Origin: a virus | Lineage: Duplodnaviria > Caudoviricetes | IMG/VR virus record: IMGVR_UViG_3300013006_001053 | Location: 1-60,404 of that record | Length of the DNA: 60,404 nt | Reading direction: 5' to 3' (one strand) | In this document: in pieces, positions 3,971-33,009 of the stretch | How positions within the stretch are numbered: the stretch's first letter is position 1 | Layout of the letters: each line of letters begins with the position of its first letter | Notes under the pieces: generated by a model | Databases searched by the model: none | What the model was told of the DNA's origin: nothing | Seen by the model: the letters and a program-made list of their open reading frames with translations, nothing else | Position numbers and translations under genes: made by a program

Positions 3971-3978
3971 ATATCAAG

Positions 3979-4051: not shown

Positions 4052-4052
4052 G

Positions 4053-4818: not shown

Positions 4819-4913
4819 CTTCCCTTTCAAATTCTGCTAATGCGTTGTTATTACTAAAACAATTACGGCAATCACCGTTAGTTAATCTTGATCCACATAT
4901 ATCACAAAAATGA

Positions 4914-5643: not shown

Positions 5644-5954
5644 GAACAGACCTATAGCCTTTACTAACTAAATACCGTGCAATTTCAAGGTTGGCTATAA
5701 AATACCCTGCCAACATACCCCATAGGAACTTAAGCATCTACTTTTTTATGGTCTTTCTTTATGTGGTTTGTTAAGGTTTCGTGGGCAAAGGGGGATCGAG
5801 ATTCAATCTCCTTCTTACAAATACTACATATAATTATTCTAGCCATGGCTACCCCTTACGTAATAAAAGCCATAATCCCAAAGACATACAGAATAGGCTA
5901 AACAGTGTAGAACTTAGTGTCATATATTAAGTATAGCAAAATTACTTTGATTTG

Positions 5955-6242
5955 TCAATCCCAGGCTTTTTCCATAACATCTGGATCATCAATATCTAAT
6001 CTATAAACAGTCCCCCACTTAAAATAAGGTTTATAAAACCAGTGTGACAAAAAAGCGTGGTATGTGTAGACAAACCCATGATCATCATGGTCATCATAAT
6101 GTAAAGCCTTGCCTAAATGATAATGAGCAGGAAGTTCACAAAGGTTTGCAAACCACCTCAGTAGTAGGTTCTTCGTCCTGTGTTCTTTGATAAACTTGTC
6201 CAGGTATCCATCGTAATCTTCCATTTTTGTATTGCCTTTCAT
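5955..6242 (-). CDS. Hypothetical protein
   Basis: ORF on the coding strand. Confidence 0.55.
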   Translation of the reverse strand: MKGNTKMEDYDGYLDKFIKEHRTKNLLLRWFANLCELPAHYHLGKALHYDDHDDHGFVYTYHAFLSHWFYKPYFKWGTVYRLDIDDPDVMEKAWD

Positions 6243-6482
6243 ACCCCAGTGATTTCCAGTCCATCTTCATGATCTTTGGCTCTTTAATTTTGGTCGACCT
6301 TATATGTCATTGCAATATAGCATACTATGTACCCTGCAAAAAATGCGGGAATAAGAAATAAAACATTAATCATTTTGTAACCCCCTTTATCATATAAGTA
6401 TAGCACTCTGTACAGTAAACGCCACTTCGTAATGCTTGGCTAGCATTGGTTCCATAACAATTAGCACAAGTAATTCCTGTCA

Positions 6483-6713
6483 TTAGTATCCTCCAGTACA
6501 TTCATTTCTACTATGATACAAACGTATCTTTGTCATTGTCTTTTTGTTCGGGGCATTTAAAGTTTCATCACAACATAAACAGTCAAACTCCCATTCTCCA
6601 CTAAAGAAGTCATACTTATAACCCTTAGCACTGGCATACTTCTTGGCTATAAAGGTTTGAAAAGGGTCGGGGATTTCAAGACTTCTTAGCATATGCACAC
6701 CATATCCTACCAT
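6483..6713 (-). CDS. Hypothetical Zn-finger-like protein
   Basis: CLCC...H...C pattern; start uncertain. Confidence 0.55.
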   Translation of the reverse strand: MVGYGVHMLRSLEIPDPFQTFIAKKYASAKGYKYDFFSGEWEFDCLCCDETLNAPNKKTMTKIRLYHSRNECTGGY

Positions 6714-6952
6714 CAGTCATGGTCTGATGAGTCTCCCAAAATAATGGATCTTTGTGATGCATCTCACATTTTGGACATTCGTTTGGTTTCATACTTTAAG
6801 TGTACCAAAGTTCGGCGAAAAGTGCAACTAAAAGTCGGCGCAAAATAGAGGTTTCTAAACCTTTCTAAGCCCGACACGGGCTATATTGGTGAGTAGTCCT
6901 AATATGCTACAGCACATATCACACGTTCCACAGGATCTGTTATTGGTCTGTG

Positions 6953-7144
6953 TTATTTGCATTTATTGCAGTACATAGGACTTCTTAGGTTATCCTGTGA
7001 TATCACGAATTTAATGGCACAGTGAGAACACTTTACTTCAGATAGAGAGTGCTCTTTTAAAACAACCTTATATCTGTCAGTGTAATAGAACATAGTTACA
7101 AACCATGTTACGGCACAAAAAAATACTATTAATCCTAGCGTCAT
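6953..7144 (-). CDS. Membrane-anchored Zn-ribbon protein
   Basis: N-terminal TM, CxxC...CxxC, RBS GAGGAG. Confidence 0.6.
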   Translation of the reverse strand: MTLGLIVFFCAVTWFVTMFYYTDRYKVVLKEHSLSEVKCSHCAIKFVISQDNLRSPMYCNKCK

Positions 7145-7312
7145 TTCTACTCCTCAAAACTTATTTGTGTTTCCCAAAAATCTCTATTTGGGTAAAGAAT
7201 AACTTCATCTACAACATGCTTACAGGCAGTACAAATTACCAAACCATCAAGGTCAACTTCATATGCGTGTCTGCAGTCCATCTATCCAGTATACCAAACC
7301 TTGGCGGGATAG

Positions 7313-7639
7313 TCAAGATAAGTAATCTATAGCCCTATTTAAAATAGAAACATCATCTTTTAATAATCCCAAGGCTACGTTGCAAGCATTGCATAGATAT
7401 CCTCTAAATTCCTTAGTTTTCCAGTCGTGATCTAAATAATATTTTTTATCTTTCTTTTGACATATTGGGCAAGCATGATCTTCTGGTATAAGATTAGTTT
7501 TTCTTAAATTATTTACAAGCCTGCTTTTGATTCCAGCACAGGGTTTGCAAATATCTTTATAGTGTACTTTTACTGGCGTAGTATGATTAATAACCATTTG
7601 AGACACATCTTTTTCATCAAAACATATTCTACATATCAT
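7313..7639 (-). CDS. Endonuclease VII-like HNH nuclease
   Basis: CPIC...LDHD...RGYLCNACNVALG...AIDYL; leaderless start. Confidence 0.85.
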   Translation of the reverse strand: MICRICFDEKDVSQMVINHTTPVKVHYKDICKPCAGIKSRLVNNLRKTNLIPEDHACPICQKKDKKYYLDHDWKTKEFRGYLCNACNVALGLLKDDVSILNRAIDYLS

Positions 7640-7983
7640 ATATCTATTATCTCAAATTTTGCGGGGGAAGTCAATAAAGGATCGTAATCCCTAGTATAAG
7701 ATATTAGCCCCTATGCCAGATATAGAAGGTTAGCGCAGCGACTAGGATATACGGGATAGCGCAGAAAACCAACATATCCACGGTTATTTATCCCCTGGAT
7801 TTTTACAGTTAGGACATTGGTTTGTAGGGTTTAAAACCCCATAGGATACTTCAAACATACCCCCACAGTTAAAGCATAGTACTTTTAGCATAGATCAATT
7901 GTATCAGAGTTATCCACAGAATGGTTTGATATTTCTGGTTTGATACCGTGGCAAAAATAGTTCTTTGATGCTCCAGATATGCA

Positions 7984-8217
7984 TTATGTAAAACCTCCTA
8001 CCCAGACTATATCCCATGAAGATGTATTATATAGTCCTGCATCTGCTGGAATGCTGTTTTCATTGTATAAACCAGCATCTACATAGGTAAATGACTCAGG
8101 AGGGGTTACATCATTGTAAGAGGTTACAATAGGTATATTTCTTTTTACTACTATTGTTTGGCTACCCATATAAACATCTAGGTTAATGGTATTTTGTTTG
8201 ACTACTAAGGTTAGCAC
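7984..8217 (-). CDS. Small virion-type protein
   Basis: C-terminal DAGLYNTSSWDIVWVGG resembles the end of 32557..33009. Confidence 0.6.
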   Translation of the reverse strand: MLTLVVKQNTINLDVYMGSQTIVVKRNIPIVTSYNDVTPPESFTYVDAGLYNENSIPADAGLYNTSSWDIVWVGGFT

Positions 8218-8570
8218 TATACTGCCCCAGTAATATCATCCGTTACTGTTATGCTGCCTGTTAGGATTGTATAAATAATATTTGGAGTAGGAGTTGTATC
8301 TGTGATCTGAACATCATACACATATTGTCCTGCAGATAGGGTTCTACCTACTGTAGAAGTGATTGTGCAAGCTACTGTTGCTGGCTCGTGTTTTACAGCC
8401 AATGCAGATACTTGAGTACCACCAGATCCTCTTTGATTGGCAAGTTTGAATGAAAAGGTTTCGTATCCAGAAATAAGAAAATCAGTTCCATCAGAGTTTT
8501 TTAGTTCAACATTAAATTGAAATGTATCACCCTTATAATAGTTAAAATCAAAAGTTTTTGGAAATGGCAT
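8217..8570 (-). CDS. BppU-N-like virion protein, paralog of 24237 and 29549
   Basis: YKGDTFQFNV...YVYDVQI...GSITV; leaderless after TGATATAAT. Confidence 0.65.
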   Translation of the reverse strand: MPFPKTFDFNYYKGDTFQFNVELKNSDGTDFLISGYETFSFKLANQRGSGGTQVSALAVKHEPATVACTITSTVGRTLSAGQYVYDVQITDTTPTPNIIYTILTGSITVTDDITGAV

Positions 8571-9506
8571 AAGTTGATTATATCATGGTTTAGAGTATTA
8601 AAGATATTTGAATTTAAATAGTTATCCACAGGAAAATACCTATAAATATCATAGTTATCCACAGGTTTATCCACAGGTAGATCTTACTGATATTTTTTAG
8701 ATTTTCTTTTAGTGGAGGAAAGTGGAGCAAAAGGGAGGATTGAGCATTTATACAAAAGGGTTCGTAATGTCTAACGGGCCAAACCTCCTACCACACAAAC
8801 CTTCATATGTCAAACCTTCATATCCCAATAGCGGATTATACCCCCAAACCTCCTATTTGTCAAACCTTTATAGCCTAAAAACCCTCTACAAAATGTAGCA
8901 AAATGTCCAATAAATCTAGGAAAAACCAGGAAAAAATATATAAAAGGTTTGATAATTTCTAGAAAACCAGGAAAAAAGGTTTGTCTATTTACTGTGTATT
9001 ATACTAGGGGATTTGGTACTCATTCGTAATCCCCCGCTAAATCCCGTGGGATCGTAATGTCTAATAAGCCTGTGACTCTGGCCTGGGGCGGGGGATCAAT
9101 TGATAAAATAAAGACCAAAACCTATAGAGGTAATAAGAACACCAAAGGATGAAGCTATAAAATAGAAAACCTTCATATCTGGTTTGATATCTTCATGAGG
9201 TTTGTTTGGTTTGTGATCATGATCATGCATAGAGGTACCATCGTTAACAAAACATGGTCCACCATACTTAGAAAAATGATTCCTGGTCATAATATTATTA
9301 TACACCTGGTTTGACAATTGATCCTAGATATGCTAGGTACGGGGAAAAGTTTTTGGAGGTTCGTAATGTTTTTTTAGGAAATGAGGTTTGGTAAGGTTTG
9401 TCCATCAATGGGGAAAAATTTAGCTCTATCGTAATCTATTTTTAGGGTTTTAAGGTTTGTCCCATATGTCCGATTTGTATAGATAATCCGGCCCGTAGGC
9501 CGCAGA

Positions 9507-9773
9507 TCACTCTGCGTTGCCTGATGCCGCAAGAACCTCATCAAGGTCTTCAAAACCTTCGTCTTCAAGGTTTAGAGAAGCCAAGAACAATTGCCAAGTC
9601 TCAGCAATATATTTTTCTCCGTCACCTGTTACGGCGCAGAGATGTTCTTTCTCTAAGTAAGCAAGTGGCAAACCTAAGTCATTGAATTCTATGAACTCAT
9701 TGAAACCTGGGTCTTCTCTATACTCGGAATAGAGTTGTCCTAAGATGTTACAGATATTAGAAAAGTCGGTCAC
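9507..9773 (-). CDS. Hypothetical acidic protein
   Basis: Coupled to upstream ORF. Confidence 0.65.
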   Translation of the reverse strand: MTDFSNICNILGQLYSEYREDPGFNEFIEFNDLGLPLAYLEKEHLCAVTGDGEKYIAETWQLFLASLNLEDEGFEDLDEVLAASGNAE

Positions 9774-9990
9774 TGTTATATTCTACTCTCTTTTGTTCAA
9801 CTATGTCAAGTTGGAATTGGGCAGACTCTAGAACTTCTAGACTCCTGCGAAAAATAAGATAAGGAAGGCTACGAGACATATACACTCCTACCTTCTCTAG
9901 GTCAAGATTAAAGTCTGATAAAAGTACGCCAATTTTCTCAGCAACCTTTTCCTCTTTAGTCTTAGTTACAGATTTACTGATACGATACAT
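9757..9990 (-). CDS. Hypothetical protein
   Basis: RBS GAGGAG, TGGTATAAT promoter. Confidence 0.7.
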   Translation of the reverse strand: MYRISKSVTKTKEEKVAEKIGVLLSDFNLDLEKVGVYMSRSLPYLIFRRSLEVLESAQFQLDIVEQKRVEYNSDRLF

Positions 9991-10085
9991 AGTACTCCTC
10001 TATATTCATTATACCAAAAAGAAGGGAAGGGGGCAAGCCCACCACAGCACTGCCCCCTCACCCTTAGACAGGGATGACCCTACCC

Positions 10086-10448
10086 CTAGTCTTGCTCAGC
10101 CAAAACCTTTGGAGCGTAGGCATTAATAAATGCATCAAATTCCACGGGCACATTATCAGTAACAGTCTTGTTAGTAAAATCGATTACCACTGTCTGTTCG
10201 CCAAGGTCATAGGACCCATTGCCACTGATAGCATATATGCCAAACCCGTGCTCATCTAGAATCTCGTGTTGGGTAAGATAACTAATCATCATACGGGTGC
10301 CATACGATGAGTCAAACCAGCGTGGCTTTGCGTGTTCCAAGGCCCTAGCAATGTTTCTTTCCCACTCTATTTGCCCCCAGTGGCTGTATAGGACTACACT
10401 AGGCCCGTCCTCTGAGTCTTTGAATACATAGTTAATTCTTGCTCCCAT
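10086..10448 (-). CDS. Hypothetical early protein (MGxR...LYSHW family)
   Basis: RBS AAGGAG; recurrent phage motif. Confidence 0.7.
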   Translation of the reverse strand: MGARINYVFKDSEDGPSVVLYSHWGQIEWERNIARALEHAKPRWFDSSYGTRMMISYLTQHEILDEHGFGIYAISGNGSYDLGEQTVVIDFTNKTVTDNVPVEFDAFINAYAPKVLAEQD

Positions 10449-10514
10449 TAGTTGTTCTCCTTTAGGTCATAGGTGTTTTCTTCAATTGTATCAAACAGCG
10501 AAGGCTGTGTCCAA

Positions 10515-11890: not shown

Positions 11891-12139
11891 TTAGGCATTT
11901 TTTCTCCTATCTGAAATAGCGAATGCTAGTCGGTATGTTAGTCCGTAAACTTCTACTAGAGCGTCTAAGTATCCTAAGTGGTATCTATACTCAGGTAGGT
12001 CTTGAGTTTCTGATAAGTTAGTTAGTTCTGTTTCACATTCAAGCATTAGGTTTTTTAGTTCCCCGTGCATAATGTCTGTGCCCGATTCACCTAAGTCAAT
12101 CAGTTTTTGTAGTCTTGGTTCTAGGTCTGTGTTCATCAT
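11891..12139 (-). CDS. Hypothetical protein
   Basis: Directly downstream of a TGTCAG-N10-TATGAT promoter. Confidence 0.6.
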   Translation of the reverse strand: MMNTDLEPRLQKLIDLGESGTDIMHGELKNLMLECETELTNLSETQDLPEYRYHLGYLDALVEVYGLTYRLAFAISDRRKNA

Positions 12140-12318
12140 TGTTCTATCATACCTTCTGCCACTGACAACAGGTGCCTAGTGGCTTTGATCTGTCCCCTGA
12201 TATTATCAATATCTGAGAGGTCATACTCAGAGCCATTTCTGTATTCCTCATAGAATTTCTCATAGTCTTGGTTAAGACTAATTAAGTGTATTCTCATATA
12301 CTCTATCAATGTGTTCAT
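12136..12318 (-). CDS. Hypothetical protein
   Basis: Leaderless start after TATACT. Confidence 0.6.
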   Translation of the reverse strand: MNTLIEYMRIHLISLNQDYEKFYEEYRNGSEYDLSDIDNIRGQIKATRHLLSVAEGMIEQ

Positions 12319-12321
12319 ATA

Positions 12322-12534
12322 TTAAGTATAGGGGTTGCTGTTGATTTTAACAAGGTTTGGGGATGTGATATGAACCACTCCGTGGCCGTATTCAAGTTCT
12401 TGTTTATTTATTCTAATAATGGCTTGATGAAAGCAAGGACACCTAGGCTCATCTATACTGTCCAAGTAAGTAGTGATCTCTATTAAGGTATCACATTCGG
12501 TACAAAGAAAATCATACTTAGTCCACATTATCAA
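12322..12534 (-). CDS. Zn-ribbon hypothetical protein
   Basis: CTEC...CPC. Confidence 0.5.
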   Translation of the reverse strand: MIMWTKYDFLCTECDTLIEITTYLDSIDEPRCPCFHQAIIRINKQELEYGHGVVHITSPNLVKINSNPYT

Positions 12535-12842
12535 AGTACCCTTCTACTTGCAAACCTTGAAGTAACTCTTTTGCTCTCCAAGTATTGTTATATAGCCAAG
12601 GGTCGTCATTTGAATTTATCGTGGTAAGTACAGAATCCAACGCATAAACCATATCATCTACATCAGTGCTAATATAACCTAGCATTACTCACCCCAATAC
12701 TTTAAGATAGTATTCATAGTCATATGTAGATTACAATCGCAATCCCCACCATTCATATTTTCCATAAAATCAAAGTGTGAGAAATTATCCTCATAGATTT
12801 CCTCTACGAGTTCGTGTATTGTGTAAGGTTTGAATGTTGTAC

Positions 12843-13082
12843 TCATTTTGTGTGCCACTCACCTAGTTCAGGTAGGAATACATTTTCCTCTATATCCCAT
12901 TGGGCATCATCCCAACTAAGTTCATCAGTCATAATTTTACCGATTTCATCTATGAAGGTTTGCATAACGGCTTCTGCGTGGTGTGCATTCTTAGCCTTGA
13001 TATTTGTAATAGAAATAGCAAGGTCGCACGAATAGTAGTCTGCGTACATTTCAGGGTTTTCTATGTTTTCTGTTGTTGTCAT
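12843..13082 (-). CDS. Hypothetical acidic protein
   Basis: Leaderless ATG 6 nt after TATGAT. Confidence 0.6.
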   Translation of the reverse strand: MTTTENIENPEMYADYYSCDLAISITNIKAKNAHHAEAVMQTFIDEIGKIMTDELSWDDAQWDIEENVFLPELGEWHTK

Positions 13083-13096
13083 ATTACTATCATATC

Positions 13097-13504
13097 CTAT
13101 GCCACTGACATTTTGGACTGCCATAGGGAGCAGTTATCATCAAGGCGTGAGCCAAAAACACGGATGTAGTCTGCGATATCTGCTGTTTGATCTGTTAGAC
13201 ATTCTTTAACTGTGTCTACTGATATAAAGACTCTGCCATTCCATAGACCCATTTGGCCAATGTTTGTTGGTACTTCTAAGCATCCGTAAGTATCCTGCTC
13301 CCAGCCAACACCCTCTGTACAAACCAGGGCATACTTATTGTCGCCAAATACATTTTTTTCTTCAAGGGTAACGAATAGAAGATTATCTACTGTACATTCA
13401 CTAAAGTCACTACTATACTGTAGATTATAGATTCCATTAGCGATTACTGCTAACTTCTTGCCGTCAACGATTTGGCCTAAATAGCCCTTTGATCTTTCTC
13501 TCAC
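13097..13504 (-). CDS. Hypothetical protein
   Basis: GTG start after AAAGGA. Confidence 0.6.
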   Translation of the reverse strand: MRERSKGYLGQIVDGKKLAVIANGIYNLQYSSDFSECTVDNLLFVTLEEKNVFGDNKYALVCTEGVGWEQDTYGCLEVPTNIGQMGLWNGRVFISVDTVKECLTDQTADIADYIRVFGSRLDDNCSLWQSKMSVA

Positions 13505-13645
13505 TGGTGTATCCTTTGGTAGTAGGTATATATCAATTGTACCCGAACTGGGAAAAAATAGCAACTACCGTAATAAAGATTTGGGAAAAATCTCATACTT
13601 ACGTAATAAGGTTTGTAACAAAATGTGATAAAGCCGGGCCACTTG

Positions 13646-13719
13646 CGATTCCAACGGGACTTGAACCCGTAGCCTCTACCGTGACAGGGTAGCGATCTAA
13701 CCAATTGATCTATGGAATC
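13646..13719 (-). tRNA. tRNA-Asp(GTC)
   Basis: GATTCCA/TGGAATC acceptor, CTACC-CTGTCAC-GGTAG arm, GGTTCAAGTCC. Confidence 0.93.
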
Positions 13720-13722
13720 TTG

Positions 13723-13751
13723 CGAGCAGTTTTAAATCTTGCTCAGGATTT
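13723..13751 (-). ncRNA. Repeated pseudoknot element, copy 1
   Basis: AAAUC-CUGAGCAA-GAUUU-AAAAC-UGCUCG, immediately 5' of tRNA-Asp. Confidence 0.7.
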
Positions 13752-13757
13752 TTTTTG

Positions 13758-14780
13758 TTATGCTAGAGACATAACACCTTGTACAACTTTTAGCAGACGA
13801 TTTTTTTCTGCGTTGATAGCAGGGTCAAATCCGCTTGCACTTGCAAGGATAGATTCGTTAGAACCACCACGAGCAGAACGATACCAGTCAAGGCGCTCAG
13901 TTAGTGCATTGAAAGCACCCCACGCATTACCAGCAATCATTCCGTTATATTCGCCAGTGTAAATATCGTTAATCATATCTACCTTGTTTTCCCATTTCTT
14001 GCTTGAACCCTTAGCGTCTTTTTCTGGCTTAGGATAAGCAGCAAGAATGATTTTGTTAAAGTCAATGGCGCTAACTTCCTTTTCAATCATAGCCTTAGCC
14101 ATAACATCAAATTCGTCCATATAAGCATTAGCAAGACCTAAAGTCTCACGAGCAATTTGCACTTTACCATTAGCGGTTTGTGTGTGGCGAATCTTGAAAG
14201 ATTGCTTGATTCCCTTATTTTTCTTACGACCTACGCCACCAAGCGCAAGGTTAAGAGTGTTAGCGCACACAACACGAACGGGTGTTATGCTTGCTTGAAT
14301 AGCGATAGAACCATCGTGTGATGTGTTTATAAGCAAATAAGTCTTTACCTTATCACTTACACCGTTAGGGTCTAGGATTGTTTCACGCTCTAGTGCAAGC
14401 GCACCGAATACAACACGCCCACCCTTGATTGAACCAGCGGTTTCCCAACGACCCCCGCCGTCTAGGATATTATCACCAAATGAAAATAAATCTTCATTCT
14501 GCAATACGTGATAACGCTCACCAACTACGCCAAGAATATCTGTCTGGGTATTGTCGGTAGGATTTGTACGCAATACATATTGGTATGATTTGTCGCTTGT
14601 TAGGTGTGTAGGGGTTTCCAAATCCTCTAAGCGAACATTCCAGTTATCTAAACTAGCAAGAGATAGCATTTCTGCTGTTGTCTTTTCCTCGGTAAATACT
14701 GTTCCCAATCCGTGCCAAGCAGGTTCTCTGAATGACGCAAATGAGGTTTTGCCGTTTTGTGTTTCTAAATCGTGAGCCAC
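13758..14780 (-). CDS. DUF932/DUF945 (TIGR03299-like) phage/plasmid protein
   Basis: PAWHGLG, ETAGSIKGG, NTSHDGS, TPVRVVCANT, IRHT, AWGAFNALTE. Confidence 0.9.
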   Translation of the reverse strand: MAHDLETQNGKTSFASFREPAWHGLGTVFTEEKTTAEMLSLASLDNWNVRLEDLETPTHLTSDKSYQYVLRTNPTDNTQTDILGVVGERYHVLQNEDLFSFGDNILDGGGRWETAGSIKGGRVVFGALALERETILDPNGVSDKVKTYLLINTSHDGSIAIQASITPVRVVCANTLNLALGGVGRKKNKGIKQSFKIRHTQTANGKVQIARETLGLANAYMDEFDVMAKAMIEKEVSAIDFNKIILAAYPKPEKDAKGSSKKWENKVDMINDIYTGEYNGMIAGNAWGAFNALTERLDWYRSARGGSNESILASASGFDPAINAEKNRLLKVVQGVMSLA

Positions 14781-14943
14781 GATATTTTCCTTCTTTCTGT
14801 TGTTGATAATCTAATCATACACCACCCTACCGACATATGCAAATCAGGCTAGTTAGATATGGGGTAAATTGGACATTTCGTAAGCGTGTCGTAAATCATA
14901 GTGTGATCTTGGTCACGTCGGGCCGGGTTTGAAAATAAAAAAA

Positions 14944-14974
14944 TAAGCAGTTTAAATGGACGCTGCTCAGGTCC
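14944..14974 (-). ncRNA. Repeated pseudoknot element, copy 2
   Basis: GGAC-CUGAGCAGC-GUCC-AUUUAAAC-UGCUUA. Confidence 0.65.
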
Positions 14975-14990
14975 TATTAGTAGCCCCCTA

Positions 14991-15422
14991 CTAAATATCT
15001 ATTCTATCAATGCTTGATGATAGGTATCCAATATTATCTGAGTTATACTGGACGGCATCAAAATCAATATCGTTAATTGCATCCTGTGCATCCTCTTCAG
15101 TACGAGCATTAACTGTAATGGAATATGAAACTGCAACTTCAACTTCAAATTCTTTTGTTAATTCAAAGCCAACAATTTCTGCAATTGATTCTGCATCGCT
15201 TTCATCAATGGTGCCGTGCTCCAAGGCATCTAGGGTCCACTCTTGCATTGCTTCTGTAATTCTGTTACGGTCTGCAGAATCTAAATAGGAGCGCTGGGTT
15301 ATCTGTTGAACGTGCTGTTCAAGTTGAGCAATGCGCTCATCCTTGATTAAGATCTGAGACTCAAAAAATTCTTGCGATGTTACTGGTATTACTGTTGGAT
15401 ACGACGTTTTCATTTGGTCCAT
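14991..15422 (-). CDS. Hypothetical protein
   Basis: Coiled coil followed by a VNARTEEDA domain. Confidence 0.7.
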   Translation of the reverse strand: MDQMKTSYPTVIPVTSQEFFESQILIKDERIAQLEQHVQQITQRSYLDSADRNRITEAMQEWTLDALEHGTIDESDAESIAEIVGFELTKEFEVEVAVSYSITVNARTEEDAQDAINDIDFDAVQYNSDNIGYLSSSIDRIDI

Positions 15423-15427
15423 AGGGC

Positions 15428-15691
15428 TTATTCCATTTCTTTTTCTAGTTCATCGAATTCTTTGATTGTATCTACCATATCGTTCATCTGGCTTTCTGTT
15501 AAACAAACTGATGTAACTAATGTAGCAGTTAAGGCTGACAAACTTGCTGAGTATTTAAATAAGAATTGCATAAACTCATTGTCTGTCATTTCATTTCTTG
15601 CGTGGTATAAGTGCCCAGCCATATCCATAATTTCCTCATTGTGAACGGCTGACGCTGTTGCGTTTTGTATTCTTAGTGCTGTTGCTATCAT
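15428..15691 (-). CDS. Hypothetical protein
   Basis: Start MIATAL after AAGGAG and a promoter. Confidence 0.7.
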   Translation of the reverse strand: MIATALRIQNATASAVHNEEIMDMAGHLYHARNEMTDNEFMQFLFKYSASLSALTATLVTSVCLTESQMNDMVDTIKEFDELEKEME

Positions 15692-15900
15692 AGGGGTCTC
15701 CTTCTTTGTGGTGTAATATAAGTATATGTCCAAGGACTGACAAATGCAAGCGGGAATCATAAATGTCTTACATAATGGGATGTGATGTTGATCACTGCGG
15801 CCCGGCCTGCAAAAAATAAAAATGATTAGGAACGAGTTTTTATTGTGCACCTGTCAACTCTTTTCAGCAGCGGGATCCGCATCTGCCTAATCAAACTTAG

Positions 15901-15928
15901 TGAGCAGTTTAGCGACCTACTCAGGTCG
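15901..15928 (-). ncRNA. Repeated pseudoknot element, copy 3
   Basis: CGAC-CUGAGUAG-GUCG-CUAAAC-UGCUCA. Confidence 0.7.
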
Positions 15929-15976
15929 TTTGGGTTTAGGTGTCTAGACTTTGTGTGCTAACCCCCCAAACTTTAT

Positions 15977-16402
15977 TTATAGATAACGAGCAACCGCATT
16001 GTATGTGGAAGTATTTACAACTTCCTCATCTGTCATTTTGAGAATACGAATTGCGTTAGCAATTTCCTCTTTCTGACTACGATATTCGTGTGTGTGTAGT
16101 ACCTCAAACTCACGCTCAGGCTCTGATGGCATATCTTTTTCATTGGCTACAACAATATCATAGTCAATGTTTAGTGTGTTATTGTATGAGCGATATGATG
16201 TGCGGAAGTTAGTTGCTTTCTTGATGTTCTCAATAGCAAACGCCTGTATTTGCTTGCGCCATACTTCTCTAGCCTTTTCATACTTTGCTTCGTTGGCTTC
16301 TTGTGAAGTCCAATCAAGTTCTAGTTTAGCGAGTGCGCCTTCTAGTGCTTTGATTACTTTTGGTGTTGCGATTTTTACGCTAATTGCTTTTCCTCTTGAC
16401 AT
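15977..16402 (-). CDS. Hypothetical protein
   Basis: RBS AAAGGA; own promoter. Confidence 0.75.
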   Translation of the reverse strand: MSRGKAISVKIATPKVIKALEGALAKLELDWTSQEANEAKYEKAREVWRKQIQAFAIENIKKATNFRTSYRSYNNTLNIDYDIVVANEKDMPSEPEREFEVLHTHEYRSQKEEIANAIRILKMTDEEVVNTSTYNAVARYL

Positions 16403-16461
16403 AGTTTTCCTTTTCTTTGGTGGGTGTATTTATAGTATAGCGGAGGGGTCTGACATTGTGG

Positions 16462-16489
16462 TGAGCAGTTTAGTATCTTGCTCAGGATA
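16462..16489 (-). ncRNA. Repeated pseudoknot element, copy 4
   Basis: UAUC-CUGAGCAA-GAUA-CUAAAC-UGCUCA. Confidence 0.7.
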
Positions 16490-16502
16490 TTTACTTAGGC
16501 TA

Positions 16503-16664
16503 TTATGCCTTCCAAGTAGTCCAGCGTGTTGCACCTGCAACATCTAACTTAACACGAACTGTGCCGTTAGCGTTTGGCTTGATTTCTGTAATTGTGCCAG
16601 TTACCTTTGACTTCTGTGAAGTGTAAGTGTCGCCGACCTTGTATAGTGCTTGTGCTACTGTCAT
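16503..16664 (-). CDS. Small SH3-like beta protein
   Basis: MTVAQALYKVGDTYTSQKSKVTGTI...; RBS AAAGGA. Confidence 0.7.
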   Translation of the reverse strand: MTVAQALYKVGDTYTSQKSKVTGTITEIKPNANGTVRVKLDVAGATRWTTWKA

Positions 16665-16757
16665 TTTGTTTCCTTTTCTGTTGTTGGTTATATTTCTAGT
16701 ATATCCGAAAAATCTCAGAAATACAAATCTATTGGGAAATAATCTCATATTTTGAGA

Positions 16758-16928
16758 TTACTTAGAGGTCTTTACCATAGCGAAGCGGTGTGCGCCGTTT
16801 GCCAAGCGTAATGAAACTCTAGTTAGTTTAGCATTTATAGGGCTGAAGTCTGTAATGCGACCTGTAACTCCTGTTTTGCTTGTTGTGAATAAATCACCGA
16901 TTTGGTAAGTGTATCCGCCTAGGGTCAT
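16758..16928 (-). CDS. Small SH3-like beta protein, paralog of 16503
   Basis: Translated by hand: MTLGGYTYQIGDLFTTSKTGVTGRI...; own promoter and RBS. Confidence 0.7.
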   Translation of the reverse strand: MTLGGYTYQIGDLFTTSKTGVTGRITDFSPINAKLTRVSLRLANGAHRFAMVKTSK

Positions 16929-17143
16929 TGGTTTTCCTTTCGTTTTGGTGTATATAACAATTCTAGCAAAAAAATATCACAAATACAACTTTTGGTGAGG
17001 TTCTGGGGTGTGTCCTTAATCACATCTTAAATGCGTGTCGTAACTTGACAAACCAACTTTTTTGCGCCGGGCTTCCTTGATCACTGATATATAAAAAGAA
17101 TCAGTAACCAAAGAAGGACCCACCCCCACGTGTTCATTAAATA

Positions 17144-17866
17144 TTATTTCTTAGTTGCAGAAAATACAATATCTGCTTTTGAATATACGCATAGCGAGCA
17201 AGATACACAAGCGGACCCATTGCTTGAAATTAATGGAATGGCCTTAAGGTTTTCAGGGCACTTAGCACCTGGTTTTGAAGTTAACGCTTTCATATCTGCT
17301 TGACCAATAGCAAAATTCTTCGCAAGGTATGCAAGGCGAATTCCGTGATCAGTCTTTAGTTCAATACCAATAGACTTATTCTCACTATCAGTTGAATAGT
17401 ATAAGGATAGATTAGGAATATCTTTTAAAATTAGCGCTGCAGACTTAACTCGTGTGTATACCCAAAATTGAATATCAGGATGAGTATCAATTATATCTTT
17501 CCACGCATATGCATAAACATCGTTAAAAAAATCTCCGTCCCAGTGTATACGAAATAACCTAGGAGCGTTTTTCTTATTGCATTCTGCCTTGAATTCTACT
17601 ATCATTTGATCAAGAAGATCTTTCATCGTATTAGAATCAGCGTCTTTCAATAGGTCCCAATTGTGTAGGAGGCTAGCCTTTACGGAAGGGAATACCTTTT
17701 CTAACTTGCCAGCATAGCAGATACGTTCGCACACGCTAGTAGCACTAGGGCAAGAATAAGACTTGCCAGCAGGTAGGCCGAAAGTATTCGCAATCGTGGG
17801 GGTTTTCCCATTGGGTGATACCGCATTAGCAACCTTTCTATCTTTAGAACGTTTTAATTGGGTCAT
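17144..17866 (-). CDS. GP88-family protein (radical-SAM-like Cys motif)
   Basis: FGLPAG..SCPSATSVCERICYA, FRIHWDGDF, FWVYTR, C-terminal CP...CxxCxxC. Confidence 0.8.
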   Translation of the reverse strand: MTQLKRSKDRKVANAVSPNGKTPTIANTFGLPAGKSYSCPSATSVCERICYAGKLEKVFPSVKASLLHNWDLLKDADSNTMKDLLDQMIVEFKAECNKKNAPRLFRIHWDGDFFNDVYAYAWKDIIDTHPDIQFWVYTRVKSAALILKDIPNLSLYYSTDSENKSIGIELKTDHGIRLAYLAKNFAIGQADMKALTSKPGAKCPENLKAIPLISSNGSACVSCSLCVYSKADIVFSATKK

Positions 17867-17870
17867 AGAA

Positions 17871-18023
17871 TTACTCGCTCTCTTTCTTTAATTCTAGCAT
17901 TAGGGACTGACATTTCTTGCCTTTGCGAGAATAAACTTTTTTAGAAGGCACGGCTGAAGCAGCATTACTGCGGCGTAATTCCATAAGCCTGCGTAATTCC
18001 TCGGGACCCTTTGGCGTGTTCAT
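17871..18023 (-). CDS. Small basic protein (ELRRSNAA...KKVYSRK)
   Basis: Leaderless after TTGACA...TAGAAT; translated by hand. Confidence 0.55.
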   Translation of the reverse strand: MNTPKGPEELRRLMELRRSNAASAVPSKKVYSRKGKKCQSLMLELKKESE

Positions 18024-18201
18024 AAATCAATTCTAGCATTATCAGACTAAAAATGTCAAATCATAAAGCTGTGACCAATCTCACACGGCCCGGCCTTTCA
18101 ATAGTAATTAGATTTGCACTCAGAGCAAACAAAATTAAGTTTGCAATAGCAACCAATAGATACAGGTTCAGGATTTTCATAGTAGTCATCATATGAATCC
18201 A

Positions 18202-18429
18202 TTATAGATCACCCATTTCTGCGTCAGCCATACGAGTTTCCATATGGTGTGAAACTAAATCAAAAGTTGAATAAGACGGATACATAGCAGCCTCTAACTC
18301 ACAAGACCAACATAGATCAAAAACATTTAATTCTGTTTCATCACGGCAAACATTACAGTTGCCATAGTTTTCAACTGGTGAAGTTGTAGCATATAGTTCA
18401 TCATAGAACTCATCATTTTCATATCGCAT
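18202..18429 (-). CDS. Hypothetical Zn-finger protein
   Basis: CxxC..CxxC; RBS GAAAGG. Confidence 0.6.
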   Translation of the reverse strand: MRYENDEFYDELYATTSPVENYGNCNVCRDETELNVFDLCWSCELEAAMYPSYSTFDLVSHHMETRMADAEMGDL

Positions 18430-18549
18430 TTGGCACGACCTTTCGTTTAGATTATTCTAATCCTAGCAGACTGAACTGACAAATACAAGTTCTGGGGGAT
18501 TTAAACACGGTACGTAACTGTGATCTCTGCCACAGGCGGCCCGGCCCCG

Positions 18550-18789
18550 CTATTGCTCGTCTATAAAGACGTAGAGTTTAAACATATCCTCAAAGGTGCA
18601 AGCAGTTTCATATGTTTCACCAAAATCATTACGGTGTGTAACTATATAGTTATCACCTGTTGCATCATCTACAACGGACAACACTTCAACAATGTCATCA
18701 TCAACATTAATTAAATCGCCAACCATAAGTTGAGCGGGAGTTAATAAGTCAGCGTATACAAATTTCATAGTCTCCATTGTAGCAGTCAT
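18550..18789 (-). CDS. Hypothetical protein
   Basis: RBS GGAGG. Confidence 0.65.
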   Translation of the reverse strand: MTATMETMKFVYADLLTPAQLMVGDLINVDDDIVEVLSVVDDATGDNYIVTHRNDFGETYETACTFEDMFKLYVFIDEQ

Positions 18790-18913
18790 TTTACTTCCTC
18801 CACTATTACATCGTCATAGCCCATCTCTATCATCTCTTGCGCCCAATATTCTGCATCTCGTCTAGTAAGGTAGTTAGAATTTAATTCGCTTCCGCCAACC
18901 CATAGGGAGTACA

Positions 18914-19198
18914 TTAGTCCTCCCAATCAGGTAGCCAGAATGATAAGTGGTGTTGGTCTACGATAGCCCTTGCAGGTGCTTGCGTTGAGCCACGATATAA
19001 AATCTGAAAGTCTCCAACCATAGGCATATCAATCATTCGATCATAGTCCTCATCATAGTATGCATCTATTGCCTCTATGCAAGGTTGCACCATCTCTGCG
19101 GGTACTGGAGGATAGTGATTACCTTTAAGGTGATAAAGTAATTGTGTTTCTAAGTCTAGTACTGAGTCTGTTAGTCCTATTGCTGTTACTGATCCCAT
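18914..19198 (-). CDS. Hypothetical protein
   Basis: HLxGNHYPPVP motif. Confidence 0.65.
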   Translation of the reverse strand: MGSVTAIGLTDSVLDLETQLLYHLKGNHYPPVPAEMVQPCIEAIDAYYDEDYDRMIDMPMVGDFQILYRGSTQAPARAIVDQHHLSFWLPDWED

Positions 19199-19330
19199 AT
19201 TACTTATAGTCCCAATCTGCGATTACTCCGTCAATGGCATCTGCCATATCTGCTTCAAATAATTCTAACTCATCTGCTGTTAGTTTGCTCATAACTGTTT
19301 CGATCTTTTCGATAAACTCTGCACTATACA

Positions 19331-19540
19331 TTACTTAACCGTTACCTCTCCGTTGCGATAAAATGTCTTAGTGTACATCTTACCTGTTGGGTCTGACAAG
19401 TTATAGGTTGCGTATTCTTTAGCATCACCAAAGTCCACACACTTAGTCCAAGCATCTACCGCTTCCATTAAGTCTGCGGTACGCATAGTAAAATAAAGCA
19501 CTCCGTCATATGAGGCAGTTAGTGAGTAGTTATATTCCAT
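19331..19540 (-). CDS. Hypothetical protein
   Basis: RBS and promoter upstream. Confidence 0.65.
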   Translation of the reverse strand: MEYNYSLTASYDGVLYFTMRTADLMEAVDAWTKCVDFGDAKEYATYNLSDPTGKMYTKTFYRNGEVTVK

Positions 19541-19794
19541 TAGTTTCCTTCTTTCTTTACAATAATAGTAGCAGAGAGGGCTGACAAGGCTTCTGCCTTG
19601 CTTGCTTCACGTTGGGCCTTGACGTGAGCCTTAAATTCATCTAGGTTCATAGACTTCCTTCTTTCTTGAGTTGATATAAATATCCTATCATCTATTACCG
19701 ACAAATACTAATCCATAAGGGGGTTCAGGGGTGTGTTTATAATCACACGTAAAGGGTTGTGGATAAACTGTGGACGACACGCCGGGCCAAACTT

Positions 19795-19822
19795 TGAGCA
19801 GTTTTTATTCTTGCTCAGGAAT
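19795..19822 (-). ncRNA. Repeated pseudoknot element, copy 5
   Basis: AUUC-CUGAGCAA-GAAU-AAAAAC-UGCUCA. Confidence 0.7.
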
Positions 19823-19829
19823 TATTTAT

Positions 19830-20012
19830 TTAGTAAACGCTTATGTTGCAGGCTTCAAAAAATTTATCTGCTTTGAAATTTTTATTATCCTCTGCAAACA
19901 TTGCAGCAAAGTCATCAACAAGATCGTGATAAGTAAACTCATCACCGATCAAATCTTTATAAGATGAAAGAATATCTGAAACAGCAACATAGTCTTTTCT
20001 GCTCATCGGCAT
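19830..20012 (-). CDS. Hypothetical protein (MSRKDY...DNxxFxxxKF family)
   Basis: Recurrent phage early-protein pattern. Confidence 0.7.
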   Translation of the reverse strand: MPMSRKDYVAVSDILSSYKDLIGDEFTYHDLVDDFAAMFAEDNKNFKADKFFEACNISVY

Positions 20013-20218
20013 TAGTCTGCCACCTTAAGAATTGCATAAGTGCCGTTTTCGTTAATTTCATCAAGCACTGGCTGAATTTTTGGTGCTAGTAATTCTTTTA
20101 GCATTGACTCTAGCATTTCAATTTGCATTTCTTTTTCTAGTGATAGCAAGCGAATTCCTACTGGGTGAGTTTCATCAACCTCAGTTACGAATTTCAAGTT
20201 GTGTACGATTTTTACCAT
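20012..20218 (-). CDS. Hypothetical protein
   Basis: RBS AAGGAG. Confidence 0.65.
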   Translation of the reverse strand: MVKIVHNLKFVTEVDETHPVGIRLLSLEKEMQIEMLESMLKELLAPKIQPVLDEINENGTYAILKVAD

Positions 20219-20538
20219 TTATTTATTCTCCTTCAGGTGTTGTGAATAGTTTAACGCAGGCGCATTGTACAAGTTTAATTGTATCGCCTTCCACCGACAA
20301 AGTGGCAAGGGTATTGCATTCATCGCATAGAGTTACATATTGCAATTCATCAAATAGGTTTCCCATTAGTTTTGACCTTTCTCAAATAGTTCTTTGCATT
20401 TATTAGGGTTTTCCCAATATGGCTCGCCTTCGTGGTATAGTGCAGGGGCTAAGACTACCTGACCGCAAGGACAAGTATTCATCATACCAAGCGGATAGTG
20501 GTTAGCCTTAGCGAAAGTTGTCCAGTTGCTTGCCATTA

Positions 20539-20763
20539 TTACTCACCAACCTTAACCGCAATAGTTGCATAGAAATCAGGCTGATATAGATTACCTTTTA
20601 TGTATTGTGGGCGCACCTTGATAGTGTAAGCCTCAAAGTTTTCACCATACCAAATTGCTGGGCGTGGTTCTGCCCATACAATAGTACCCTCAATATTGCG
20701 AGAGTTTGAGCGATAGTGTTTTCCGTCAAGTAGATCAACGATAGAGTATTTTTTAGTTGCCAT
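20539..20763 (-). CDS. Hypothetical protein
   Basis: Start MATKK after AAGGAAG and a promoter. Confidence 0.65.
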   Translation of the reverse strand: MATKKYSIVDLLDGKHYRSNSRNIEGTIVWAEPRPAIWYGENFEAYTIKVRPQYIKGNLYQPDFYATIAVKVGE

Positions 20764-20822
20764 TATTAGCACTTCCTTTTCTTTATATTACTATTCTAGC
20801 AGGGGGGTCTGACATTTAGGGG

Positions 20823-20875
20823 CATTTATTTGCTAGGCTCACTGTGATACTGGTCACATTTATTTGCTAGGCTCA
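20823..20875. repeat. 19-bp direct repeat flanking a perfect Crp box
   Basis: CATTTATTTGCTAGGCTCA at 20823 and 20857. Confidence 0.85.
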
Positions 20876-21106
20876 TTGCCTTATCTGTCCTTATTTAATT
20901 GTTATAGTATCAATACTAGCAGACATAAGCCAGAAATGCAAGTCGACACGCCGTAAACGGGGAGTGAATTAGATCACACGTAAGTTATCCACAGCCTGTG
21001 GAAAACGGGCCGGGCTTCATTCCTTCCCGAATAAATAAAAGGAATAAAATAAAAGACCAATGCAAAAAAAGAATGCAGCGTTGCCGCTAATAAAAAAGTT
21101 ACTCAT

Positions 21107-21298
21107 TTATTCTCCTCTGCTTTCTTTATCTGCTTCCCAATCAGATAGCCATACACGATAAGCAATTGGGTCGCAATTAAAAAGAATTTCGGAGGCGGTG
21201 AAAGTTAAATAGCCAATTTTTACATCGGGATAACATTCATCAAGCATTTGATCAAACTCTTCTTTTATTTCTAAATCTTTTTCAAATTGTGTTTTCAA
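21107..21298 (-). CDS. Hypothetical protein
   Basis: LDECYP..IG...DPIAYR phage motif. Confidence 0.65.
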   Translation of the reverse strand: MKTQFEKDLEIKEEFDQMLDECYPDVKIGYLTFTASEILFNCDPIAYRVWLSDWEADKESRGE

Positions 21299-21467
21299 TT
21301 ATTTTTCTCCAATTCTAAATCACTTTTAAACATTGCAAGAATTCTTTCTCTTTCAGTATCCGCAAGGCTTGCCCATAGGTAACCTGCTAGATAGTGAACG
21401 CCAGTATCTTTATCGTTTCCACGAATTTTATTTAGTACGGCTAAAACTTCTTTTGTTTCAATATTCA

Positions 21468-21644
21468 TTATTTAACTCCTTTGATATGTCCTGAGATACC
21501 GAGAGCGTCGCAAGACACTTGCAAGGTAATTGCTTTGGGTAGCGCATTAGGTAGCGCCTTGATATAGTTATCAGCAAGAGAAGCGGTAGCAAATTCCACA
21601 CGCTTAGTGTTACCATTAAATGAAGTCAATTTTACTTGTACCAT
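21468..21644 (-). CDS. Small protein, paralog of 22288..22461
   Basis: MVQVKLTSFNGNTK...VSCDALGISGHIKG. Confidence 0.65.
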   Translation of the reverse strand: MVQVKLTSFNGNTKRVEFATASLADNYIKALPNALPKAITLQVSCDALGISGHIKGVK

Positions 21645-22113
21645 TATTACTTACCTACCTTTTCTGCATAGATAGCATTAGGCGCACAATATAAGGCGCA
21701 TTGGCAATTAGTTAAGCCATTACGATTATTTAGCATTAGATGACGATTATATTGCTGAATATAACCGAGGTTATGAGTTAGTATGTTAGTCATTATTTTG
21801 ACCCTTTCTAGTTTAAGGTATTTCCTTAACTTTCTTTATATGACAAGTATAGCAGGGGGGTCTGACAAATGGACTTGGACATTAAAGGGCAATTCGGACA
21901 TATGGGATATGTGATAAGGCTCACATTTCATAAGATCACCCTGTGTATAACTTAACCTCACCCTGTGGATAACTTTTTTAGGCCGGGCTGTGTGATGTAA
22001 CTCACAAAAATAAATTACGACACGCCCGAGAAAAGGGGTCAAAATGTCAGTGGTAGGTGCTAGAATACTATGTATAGAAGGTTAAAGTATAACCAAAAGA
22101 AAGGTGGTCTAAA

Positions 22114-22287
22114 ATGACTACACTAAATAAAACACAATACCTACTAACTTGGGTTGGTACTAATATGGGTTGGACAGGTACTATCCAAGCCCTTTGCGAA
22201 AGCGAGACTAAGGCTTGGGATTACCTAAGCCAAAAGGTCTTAGAAGGTTGGGTAGTGTTAGAAACTACCCTAGAGGAGGTTAAATAA
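22114..22287 (+). CDS. Hypothetical protein
   Basis: RBS GAAAGGTGG; first gene after the plus-strand TGTCAG promoter. Confidence 0.65.
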   Translation: MTTLNKTQYLLTWVGTNMGWTGTIQALCESETKAWDYLSQKVLEGWVVLETTLEEVK

Positions 22288-22461
22288 ATGAAAGTTACAT
22301 TAACATCTATGCAAGGTAACACTCGCAACATAGAACTTATGTCTAAGCAAGAGGTTTTAGATTTTATTGATTTATTTAAATTAACATTACACGCTAATCA
22401 GAGAGTTAAGGTAACTTGCGATCTGCTAGGCATTGACGGTTATTTGCAAGGTGTCTCCTAG
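22288..22461 (+). CDS. Small protein, paralog of 21468..21644
   Basis: MKVTLTSMQGNTR...VTCDLLGIDGYLQG; RBS GGAGG. Confidence 0.65.
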   Translation: MKVTLTSMQGNTRNIELMSKQEVLDFIDLFKLTLHANQRVKVTCDLLGIDGYLQGVS

Positions 22462-22584: not shown

Positions 22585-23028
22585 ATGAAAAATGAAATTT
22601 GGAAACCAGTAACACAAATTAAAAAGAAAAATCAGATTCTTAATTTTGAAGGGTATGAAGTATCAAACCTTGGTAGGGTAAGAACCTATAAACAAAAGTA
22701 TGGCAAAGTATCTAAATCTGCCACGCACTCTGGTTTGAATAGACCATTAAGATCAACTCCTATTTTTATAACAGGTCGTCCTGATATCCGAGGGTATATG
22801 CAATTATGCTTATCTGACACAAATAAGAAACGTCATAACATAAGAATACACGTAGTCGTAATACAAACTTTTCTGGGTTTTCCAGAAGAAGGTTTGATAG
22901 TTTGTCATTTCAATGATATTAAGACGGATAACCGTCTAGAGAATTTAAGGTATGGAACACATAAAGAAAACAGTCAAGACGCTGTAAGAAACAATACTGG
23001 TGTTGGAAAACCGAAACCTAAAATTTAA
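22585..23028 (+). CDS. NUMOD4/HNH homing endonuclease
   Basis: EIWKPV..YEVSNLGRVR and HFNDIKTDNRLENLRYGTHKEN. Confidence 0.9.
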   Translation: MKNEIWKPVTQIKKKNQILNFEGYEVSNLGRVRTYKQKYGKVSKSATHSGLNRPLRSTPIFITGRPDIRGYMQLCLSDTNKKRHNIRIHVVVIQTFLGFPEEGLIVCHFNDIKTDNRLENLRYGTHKENSQDAVRNNTGVGKPKPKI

Positions 23029-25485: not shown

Positions 25486-25499
25486 TGGTATAATAAATT

Positions 25500-28203: not shown

Positions 28204-28206
28204 AAA

Positions 28207-32556: not shown

Positions 32557-33009
32557 GTGGCAACTGTAAATAAAGATTTTAAGGTAAAGCATGGTTTAGA
32601 TGTAAACCAAGGCGGTACTTTTGGAGGAACTGTTACAGTTGCTACTCCTACTCAAAACACACACGCAGCGACAAAACTTTACGTAGATAGCAAAGGAGCG
32701 GTTGCTGCACCAGCAGCATCTGCCCCAGCAGGTCCAGTAAATGGACAATTGTGGCTTGATACATTAACAGAACGAGTTCACGTTTATTACGGATCTCAAT
32801 GGCTTGCTATTGCAAACCTTGAAGATGCAGAAACACTTCAAGATCACATTCACGATACATCTATTGACGGCAATGGTTTAATCGTAAGTACTTTTGTTAG
32901 TGGTGGGGCATACAATGAACCAGGATATCTTGTCAGTGCTGGATTATATAATACAGCATCTTGGGAAGAAACTTGGGTAGGCGGAGAGGCAATCGATAAT
33001 TTTAACTAA
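32557..33009 (+). CDS. Fibre-associated structural protein
   Basis: MATVNKDFKVK N-terminus shared with 30678; HAATKLYVD; GQLWLD. Confidence 0.7.
   Translation: MATVNKDFKVKHGLDVNQGGTFGGTVTVATPTQNTHAATKLYVDSKGAVAAPAASAPAGPVNGQLWLDTLTERVHVYYGSQWLAIANLEDAETLQDHIHDTSIDGNGLIVSTFVSGGAYNEPGYLVSAGLYNTASWEETWVGGEAIDNFN

Follow-up and report, generated by a model that had tools for sequence, protein, structure and literature searches.

LexA/SOS-box control ties phage genes to the DNA-damage signal of the host, and in the middle promoters of phage T4 the -10 hexamer is kept and the -35 is swapped for an activator word, the MotA box at -30, at a fixed short distance. WYL regulators, PafBC among them, have been described as host sensors of single-stranded DNA (ssDNA), with repair and, in other bacteria, defence against phages under their control. 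The motif given for PafBC in vivo is tGTCgg(N10)tA(N3)T; its 3' part corresponds to the -10 of SigA, its 5' part, called the "-26 element", spans -23 to -28, and a -35 consensus is absent (PMC8635444). According to the same source, GTC is strictly conserved and contacted by two arginines of the PafB helix-turn-helix (HTH), the gg is weak, PafBC is placed between SigA domain 4 and the DNA, and a parallel is drawn between PafBC and AsiA/MotA (PMC8635444). From cryo-electron microscopy (cryo-EM) and in vitro transcription it is reported that the PafB HTH reads the -26 element (PMC8635444, PMC11804915), and ssDNA, even in short pieces, is reported to activate PafBC (PMC11804915). Here we describe an array of sites of the form TGTCRG-N10-TANNNT (R being A or G) in the IMG/VR virus record IMGVR_UViG_3300013006_001053, which is classed as linear and about 56% complete and has a G+C content (GC) of about 38%; "the window" below refers to the whole of this 60,404-base stretch.

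A probable TGTCAG promoter array in the window

The motif has 17 exact matches in the window. Shuffling the window 100 times with dinucleotide composition preserved gave a mean of 0.96 (standard deviation 1.09, maximum 5) and never reached 17; the motif read backwards, used as a control, gave 0 matches. Fifteen of the copies lie within 12146-22066, 14 on the minus strand and one, at 22045, on the plus strand at the point where two gene sets diverge.

A preliminary description of this region had counted at least 15 copies, against a low chance expectation, pointing in the direction of local transcription and mostly lying just before a ribosome-binding site or a leaderless ATG, and these points were reproduced. 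All 15 array copies have the direction of the genes, and in each the -10 hexamer is followed, after 6-96 nucleotides (nt), by the start codon of an open reading frame (ORF) of at least 30 amino acids (aa). Two of the sites (12146 and 13089) are leaderless, with the ATG exactly 6 nt past the hexamer, and most of the remainder carry a Shine-Dalgarno sequence of the AAGGA type. The fixed spacer length that had also been claimed was evident on scanning lengths of 6-15 nt, where 10 nt gave 2 copies on the plus and 15 on the minus strand and each other length gave only 0-2. The upstream word is TGTCAG or TGTCGG in 15 of 15 array sites, and on the minus strand of 12000-22100 every TGTCRG word (14/14) sits in a full motif.

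Conservation and anatomy in related phages

The GP88-family protein encoded at 17144-17866 (PF17338) was used as a query and retrieved at least 595 related IMG/VR stretches, of which the best 80 loci (1,327,971 bases) were taken for counting. These hold 634 copies of the motif co-oriented with the GP88 gene, 57 in the opposite orientation and 7 of the reversed control, with at least four co-oriented copies in 79 of the 80 loci. The spacing is again 10 nt, no other length from 6 to 15 giving more than 76 co-oriented copies. In four complete relatives (112-115 kb) the copies are confined to a single stretch of approximately 5-10 kb, which in one of them, G001, lies at 73.1-78.5 kb and adjoins the junction with the structural genes. 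An alignment of the region upstream of GP88 (66 distinct relative sequences) shows the promoter conserved while the flanks drift, and the variants CGTCAG and AGTCAG that occur within it retain GTC.

A more distant phage, G409 (96.7 kb), carries 13 co-oriented copies at one contig end. Its protease is 47-50% identical and its WhiB 43% identical to those of the main lineage, GP88 is absent, and the proteins common to the two are mostly just 23-58% identical. The motif, its orientation and its spacing are thus conserved over two divergent phage lineages. As far as can be judged from these records, the phage group is large, abundant, widespread and uncultured, with 7-15 such predicted promoters per genome.

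A logo was built from 517 unique sites of the relatives, and gave the extended consensus A-W-W-TGTCAG-T-S-S...TG-n-TAnRMT-T. The spacer, which the preliminary description had taken to vary freely in sequence, does not: positions 7-9 prefer T-S-S and positions 14-15 prefer TG (T 68%, G 74%), which constitutes an extended -10, TGn preceding the hexamer in about 70% of sites. Position 5 of the motif is A in 94%. An A stands 7 nt past the hexamer in 77% of the sites and is, in 29 of the 517, the A of a leaderless ATG; with this conserved A as +1, TGTCAG occupies -28 to -23 and the hexamer -12 to -7. Of these sites, 198 (38%) have a TTG at -36/-35, some of them as part of a full TTGACA with an 18-nt spacer, and the other 319 (62%) lack it.

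The upstream word was also left free, and 1522 co-oriented TGnTAnRMT sites in the 80 loci were used as anchors. TGTCAG was found at the expected place in 376 of these, the runner-up hexamer reaching only 27. TGTC is near-invariant, with single-mismatch variants numbering 0-15 each, and the variation falls at positions 5 and 6 (G in 15 and T in 7; C in 12 and T in 5). This combination of a rigid TGTC with looser fifth and sixth positions parallels the strict GTC and weak gg reported for PafBC promoters (PMC8635444).

Taken together, the excess over chance, the orientation, the placement before start codons, the fixed spacing, the extended -10, the conserved +1 A and the conservation despite changing flanks and gene content make it very probable that the 15 sites are real promoters. 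They represent, in their predicted architecture, a distinct hybrid class, in which the upstream word, its spacing and its position equal those of PafBC promoters. Each site would consist of a canonical sigma-A -10 (TAnRMT, mostly with TGn) and a TGTCAG at -28 to -23, the latter replacing the -35 hexamer or, in the 38% of sites noted above, standing just behind a -35-like TTG. From these promoters short transcription units would be read, made up of small genes that are mostly orphans, and the genes for DUF932 and GP88 belong to this set. This small-gene module appears host-takeover-like, the label "early" being taken from gene size and layout only.

The gene content identifies these phages as actinophages. 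WhiB (PF02467) is above cut-off in all four complete relatives, though not in the window itself, and as a check on its specificity Corynebacterium was the sole match among 14 control genomes. Homologues of GP88 and of the maturation protease occur in phages of Mycobacterium, Streptomyces and Rhodococcus; 283 Mycobacterium and 101 Streptomyces phage records were among the 393 with a GP88 homologue, and the protease is nearest (approximately 41-42%) to that of Streptomyces BE-cluster phages. The structural genes of the window likewise resemble those of Streptomyces phages, and the leaderless starts, which fit Actinobacteria, point the same way. A megablast of the early region against cultured phages gave no match.

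Candidate readers of the -26 element

The preliminary description had likened the sites to the RecA-NDp promoter, TGTCGG-N10-TANNNT, and they indeed share the core, spacing and position of the published consensus (PMC8635444): TGTC(A/G)G at -28 to -23, 10 nt before TANNNT, with GTC varying least and, in the majority of sites, no -35-like TTG. The phage element differs from PafBC promoters in standing in arrays, before orphan rather than repair genes, and in its preference for A at position 5, its frequent extended -10 and its occasional -35-like TTG.

As a host control, the region within 420 nt upstream of recA was examined in 38 sampled Actinomycetota loci, 37 of which had the anchor. NGTCNN-N10-TANNNT occurs there in 19 of the 37 and the reversed control in none of them, the hexamers including TGTCAC (6), TGTCGG (4), TGTCAG (3) and TGTCGC (2). 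In three large high-GC genomes the recA box reads TGTCAGTGGCAGG..., its first 11-12 bases being as in window sites 12146 and 13089. Furthermore, the two commonest spacer starts of the phage sites, TGGC and ACCC, are found in 7 of 16 distinct host boxes, although these boxes are orthologous and hence not independent. WYL-domain matches were obtained in 257 of 301 sampled Actinomycetota genomes (a tally that includes 11 unpublished genomes), mostly two per genome. In one metagenome-assembled genome (MAG) the pair was verified as PafB/PafC-like (WYL+WCX and HTH_PafC+WYL+WCX), and this MAG has TGTCAC-N10-TACGGT before recA.

A WYL gene of the phage's own, which the preliminary description had proposed to look for, was detected neither in the window nor in the four complete relatives. 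Six-frame family searches of these five sequences returned 0/5 for each of WYL, HTH_PafC and Sigma70_r2, and the PafB and PafC proteins of G005, used as queries, also gave 0/5. Pfam was run on 40 proteins of the window and 40 of G001, and PHROGs on 20 window ORFs (17 of them within the Pfam-scanned 40); neither found a transcription-factor domain or anything MotA- or AsiA-like, these scans covering part of the ORFs and small proteins being able to escape profiles.

On the geometry, the anchored test, the conservation, the actinobacterial host, the presence of WYL domains in the phylum, the recA boxes and the lack of a detected phage reader, we hold host PafBC to be the most likely reader of the TGTCAG element, with a confidence that falls just short of even. 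The likeness of the promoters suggests, without proving, that the phage borrows the PafBC sensor of its host. PafBC would be always present in the cell and switched on by ssDNA, and once active it would insert itself between the DNA and region 4 of sigma-A, the mechanism called sigma adaptation. Phage DNA that is entering, being resected or replicating would act as the trigger, as would host DNA cleaved by nucleases of the phage, and the module would thereby turn on without any phage regulator. We infer all three elements of this scheme, PafBC as reader, ssDNA as trigger and the timing, from sequence. It is somewhat less likely than not that a lytic actinophage group controls a takeover module of 5-10 kb without encoding any regulator for it and uses the ssDNA-activated PafBC of the host as the switch. 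Like LexA/SOS control, this would link phage genes to the host damage signal; the LexA case is one of de-repression in temperate phages, whereas here a WYL sensor would activate genes of an apparently lytic phage.

Several observations weigh against PafBC control. TGn, carried by most phage sites, is absent from 16 of 16 host recA boxes, and the TTG at -36/-35 and the strong preference for A at position 5 are likewise unlike the host boxes. A comparison of phage and host boxes by position weight matrix over the whole spacer was not significant (Fisher p = 0.075), and among recA loci with a GC of 0.50 or less a box was found in only 1 of 7. Given their extended -10 and -35-like TTG, the phage promoters may fire without PafBC. 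In one relative, L022, a canonical leaderless TTGACA-17-TATTAT promoter precedes GP88 where nearly all others have the TGTCAG promoter, which implies that PafBC-type control is not essential for this gene, and canonical promoters coexist with motif promoters more generally. Moreover, no motif excess was seen in four cultured actinophages, Faust having 2 matches and Tribute, D29 and KingCyrus being at control level. This holds even though the hosts of these phages (Mycobacterium smegmatis and Streptomyces) have PafBC, RecA-NDp being present in Streptomyces.

The search for a host also counts against the PafBC reading. The phage WhiB was found in genome contigs at seven loci, all of them phage-like low-GC pieces (GC 0.31-0.42), in MAGs labelled Saccharibacteria, Acidimicrobiaceae, Polynucleobacter, Bifidobacterium, Arenimonas and Chitinophaga. 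Among 401 Actinomycetota genomes the phage epimerase had one strong match, on a 3.7-kb contig of the same Acidimicrobiaceae-labelled MAG. In five small Actinomycetota genomes of low GC (38-40%), taken as candidate hosts, the motif was not in excess (13 against 12 for the reversed control, 8 against 17, 18 against 10, 11 against 11 and 8 against 25), and their recA promoters are of the LexA type, except in G028. Seventeen matches in low-GC genomes, picked by eye for a good -10, were inspected, and one was promoter-like, 12 nt before an AddB/AdnA-like gene of G028. This box was rejected as a host parallel: the G367 orthologue, one of 2 matches of the G028 AddB/AdnA-like query among the 401 genomes, has TGTTAT at that place, without the C of GTC. 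In mycobacteria adnA is reported to be PafBC-dependent (PMC8682763).

The assumption of a low-GC host proved unsafe, the related Streptomyces phages being far lower in GC than their hosts (the Tribute region has a GC of 0.56), and the negative from the five low-GC genomes is therefore weak.

Pieces of the phage group (L093-L099 and L112; GC 0.31-0.42) are binned into MAGs that carry the labels of six unrelated taxa, and one Acidimicrobiaceae-labelled MAG with a GC of 69% holds three separate phage pieces. Mis-binning or co-abundance may account for such pieces.

The alternative that best survives, a serious rival although we judge it unlikely, is that TGTCAG is read by an adaptor which the phage itself encodes, much as MotA/AsiA act in T4: a protein made early from canonical promoters would bind both region 4 of sigma-A and the -26 element and so open a second temporal class. 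A two-class programme of this kind is plausible, since canonical co-oriented promoters accompany the motif cluster in the window and in G001, running throughout the non-structural half of the latter, and the two classes appear to be used side by side. In the window canonical TTGAC[AT]-N16-18-TANNNT sites number 11, which is not above shuffles (7.0 +/- 2.2). Five co-oriented ones lie at 5930..10315 on the minus strand (starts 10315, 9809, 8863, 7316 and 5958), and a further one, TTGACA-18-TAGAAT with TG, lies within the array at 18030..18059 on the same strand, before the leaderless ATG (18023) of a 50-aa ORF. Those at 18059, 9809, 7316 and 5958 have an ATG or GTG exactly 6 nt past the hexamer, indicating leaderless starts.

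An adaptor would also fit the specificity of the motif to the phage group, with no excess in the cultured actinophages or the low-GC genomes, and the fact that TGTCAG is tighter at all six positions than the host boxes. The only recognisable candidate is a WhiB-like (Wbl) protein, an unrecognised small protein being equally possible; Wbl proteins bind sigma-A region 4, and whiB, found in all four complete relatives and in G409, is the sole transcription-related gene common to both phage lineages. A second WhiB-like ORF of G409 (93712-93918, plus strand; 68 aa) sits inside its TGTCAG promoter cluster. Small conserved proteins of G001 and G409 were considered as DNA binders and set aside, appearing by eye membrane- or holin-like, acidic, or of a kind which we take to be DUF3310-like. 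We know of no Wbl protein that reads a specific 6-bp word, and neither the scanned proteins nor the six-frame family searches yielded an HTH, WYL, PafC-HTH, sigma or MotA/AsiA-like domain. For an unrelated factor, the agreement of the core, the spacing and the two commonest spacer starts with the host PafBC boxes would have to be a coincidence, and the retention of the motif across phages with such divergent shared proteins also argues against an adaptor. The resemblance to T4 middle promoters accordingly extends to the architecture, a -10 with an activator word in place of the -35, and differs in that no MotA/AsiA-like activator was detected here and the word matches a host activator site.

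It is improbable that the sigma-A holoenzyme suffices through the extended -10 and that TGTCAG is an operator at which a phage or host repressor would silence the module, or the site of some other protein. Extended -10 promoters do function without a -35 in mycobacteria, and the TGn of most phage sites, lacking in the host recA boxes, the TTG at -36/-35 in 198 of 517 sites, up to a full TTGACA with an 18-nt spacer, and the interchange of canonical and motif promoters before GP88 in L022 would all be accommodated. Against it, an asymmetric 6-bp word at a fixed distance from the -10 (634 copies against at most 76) is typical of an element coupled to RNA polymerase and not of a free-standing operator, 62% of the sites are without any TTG, and no repressor candidate was found. 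Moreover, the element is placed exactly where PafB is described as contacting the DNA (PMC8635444). That another host factor such as ClgR reads the element is very improbable, for although PMC5656591 cites Wang et al. 2011 for recognition of the RecA-independent promoter motif by ClgR, and discusses an overlap of ClgR and PafBC targets, cryo-EM and in vitro transcription give the -26 element to the PafB HTH.

The preliminary description knew of no such phage regulon, and among the papers listed for PafBC, RecA-NDp or sigma adaptation together with phage we likewise found no description of phage promoters of this type. PMC12848934 cites a paper of 2025 in ACS Infect Dis that deals with pafBC and resistance to mycobacteriophages. 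Were PafBC confirmed as the reader, the array would be the first regulon of a phage under the control of a WYL-family sensor, one in which the infection alarm itself transcribes 7-15 phage operons; an invader would be exploiting the alarm of its host, the reverse of WYL-controlled anti-phage defence. If the reader is instead encoded by the phage, it would represent a new sigma-adaptor, an analogue of MotA/AsiA in a Gram-positive phylum, so that either answer is informative. Such phages would also make it possible to ask whether PafBC is activated by infection as such, their hundreds of natural -26/-10 hybrid variants would be a resource for defining what sigma adaptation needs, and the promoters may prove strong, compact and perhaps damage-inducible tools for Actinobacteria.

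Layout of the module and other genome content

The predicted promoters of the array, designated class I, are described here from the point of divergence. The single rightward site (22045..22066, plus strand) precedes ORFs 22114-22287 and 22288-22461 and the HNH gene 22585-23028. All others are on the minus strand, the first of this leftward set (21846..21867) standing before ORFs 21647-21793 onward. It is followed by 20793..20814, before a 77-aa ORF (20539-20772), and by two sites of the TGTCGG variant, 20278..20299 before a 68-aa ORF (20012-20218) and 19682..19703 before a 36-aa ORF (19540-19650). The sites at 19565..19586 and 19377..19398 precede a 69-aa ORF (19331-19540) and the small ORFs 19200-19331 and 18914-19198, respectively, and that at 18460..18481 precedes a 75-aa ORF (18202-18429). 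The GP88-family gene has its site at 17891..17912, and the 141-aa ORF 15977-16402 and the 87-aa ORF 15428-15691 have theirs at 16434..16455 and 15721..15742. At 15519..15540 the site is 96 nt away from a 143-aa ORF (14991-15422), and 14814..14835 lies before the DUF932 gene (13758-14780), a tRNA-Asp (13645-13719, inside the array) and a 155-aa ORF. The two leaderless sites close the set: 13089..13110, with its ATG at 13082 (79-aa ORF 12843-13082), and 12146..12167, which reads TGTCAGTGGCAGAAGGTATGAT and has its ATG at 12139 (82-aa ORF 11891-12139).

Two copies of the motif lie outside the array, where chance alone predicts one. That at 33930 (minus strand) is antisense within a gene. The other (32931..32952, plus strand), of uncertain function, is near the 3' end of ORF 32557-33009 and 98 nt from a 740-aa gene at 33051.

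A comparable layout is seen in Tribute (MN369743.1, Streptomyces BE cluster), which has a syntenic terminal-repeat module of small co-oriented genes, including a GP88 homologue, with a promoter for each gene and TGTC at -28 to -25 in 5 of 15 promoters. It differs in using a cTTGnnn -35 with TAGACT, one promoter only fitting TGTCRG, and genome-wide the motif is not in excess (22 against 20 for the control). The intergenic regions of Tribute 1-10492 (L114) contain a terminator hairpin and then a near-palindrome like TGTCGGGCCCGGACA, approximately 60-70 nt before each TAGACT -10.

Elsewhere in the window, positions 1-3970 hold sugar-modifying genes (an FkbM-type methyltransferase, an NAD-dependent epimerase/dehydratase and a glycosyltransferase), adjoined by tRNA-Arg(TCT) and tRNA-Met at 3978-4126. 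Between the early module and the structural genes, at 24742-28821, a collagen-repeat protein, three paralogous 2OG-Fe(II) oxygenase genes and a DUF6065 gene stand in a row; G001 has at least three further 2OG-Fe(II) oxygenase genes above the Pfam cut-off and one weaker match. In the part missing from the window, G001 (L140, L141) carries auxiliary genes for a PstS-like phosphate-binding protein, an AhpC/TSA peroxiredoxin, a CMD-family protein, a carbamoyltransferase, Hsp20, a staphylococcal-nuclease homologue, an APS-kinase-like protein and a Cas4-like PD-(D/E)XK nuclease. A 172-aa protein of G001 gives a borderline proteasome-subunit match (22.5 bits, cut-off 22.4). Finally, a single 2415-aa ORF at 48483-55730 in the tail module of the window is presumably the tape measure, and is unusually long for a genome of approximately 110 kb.

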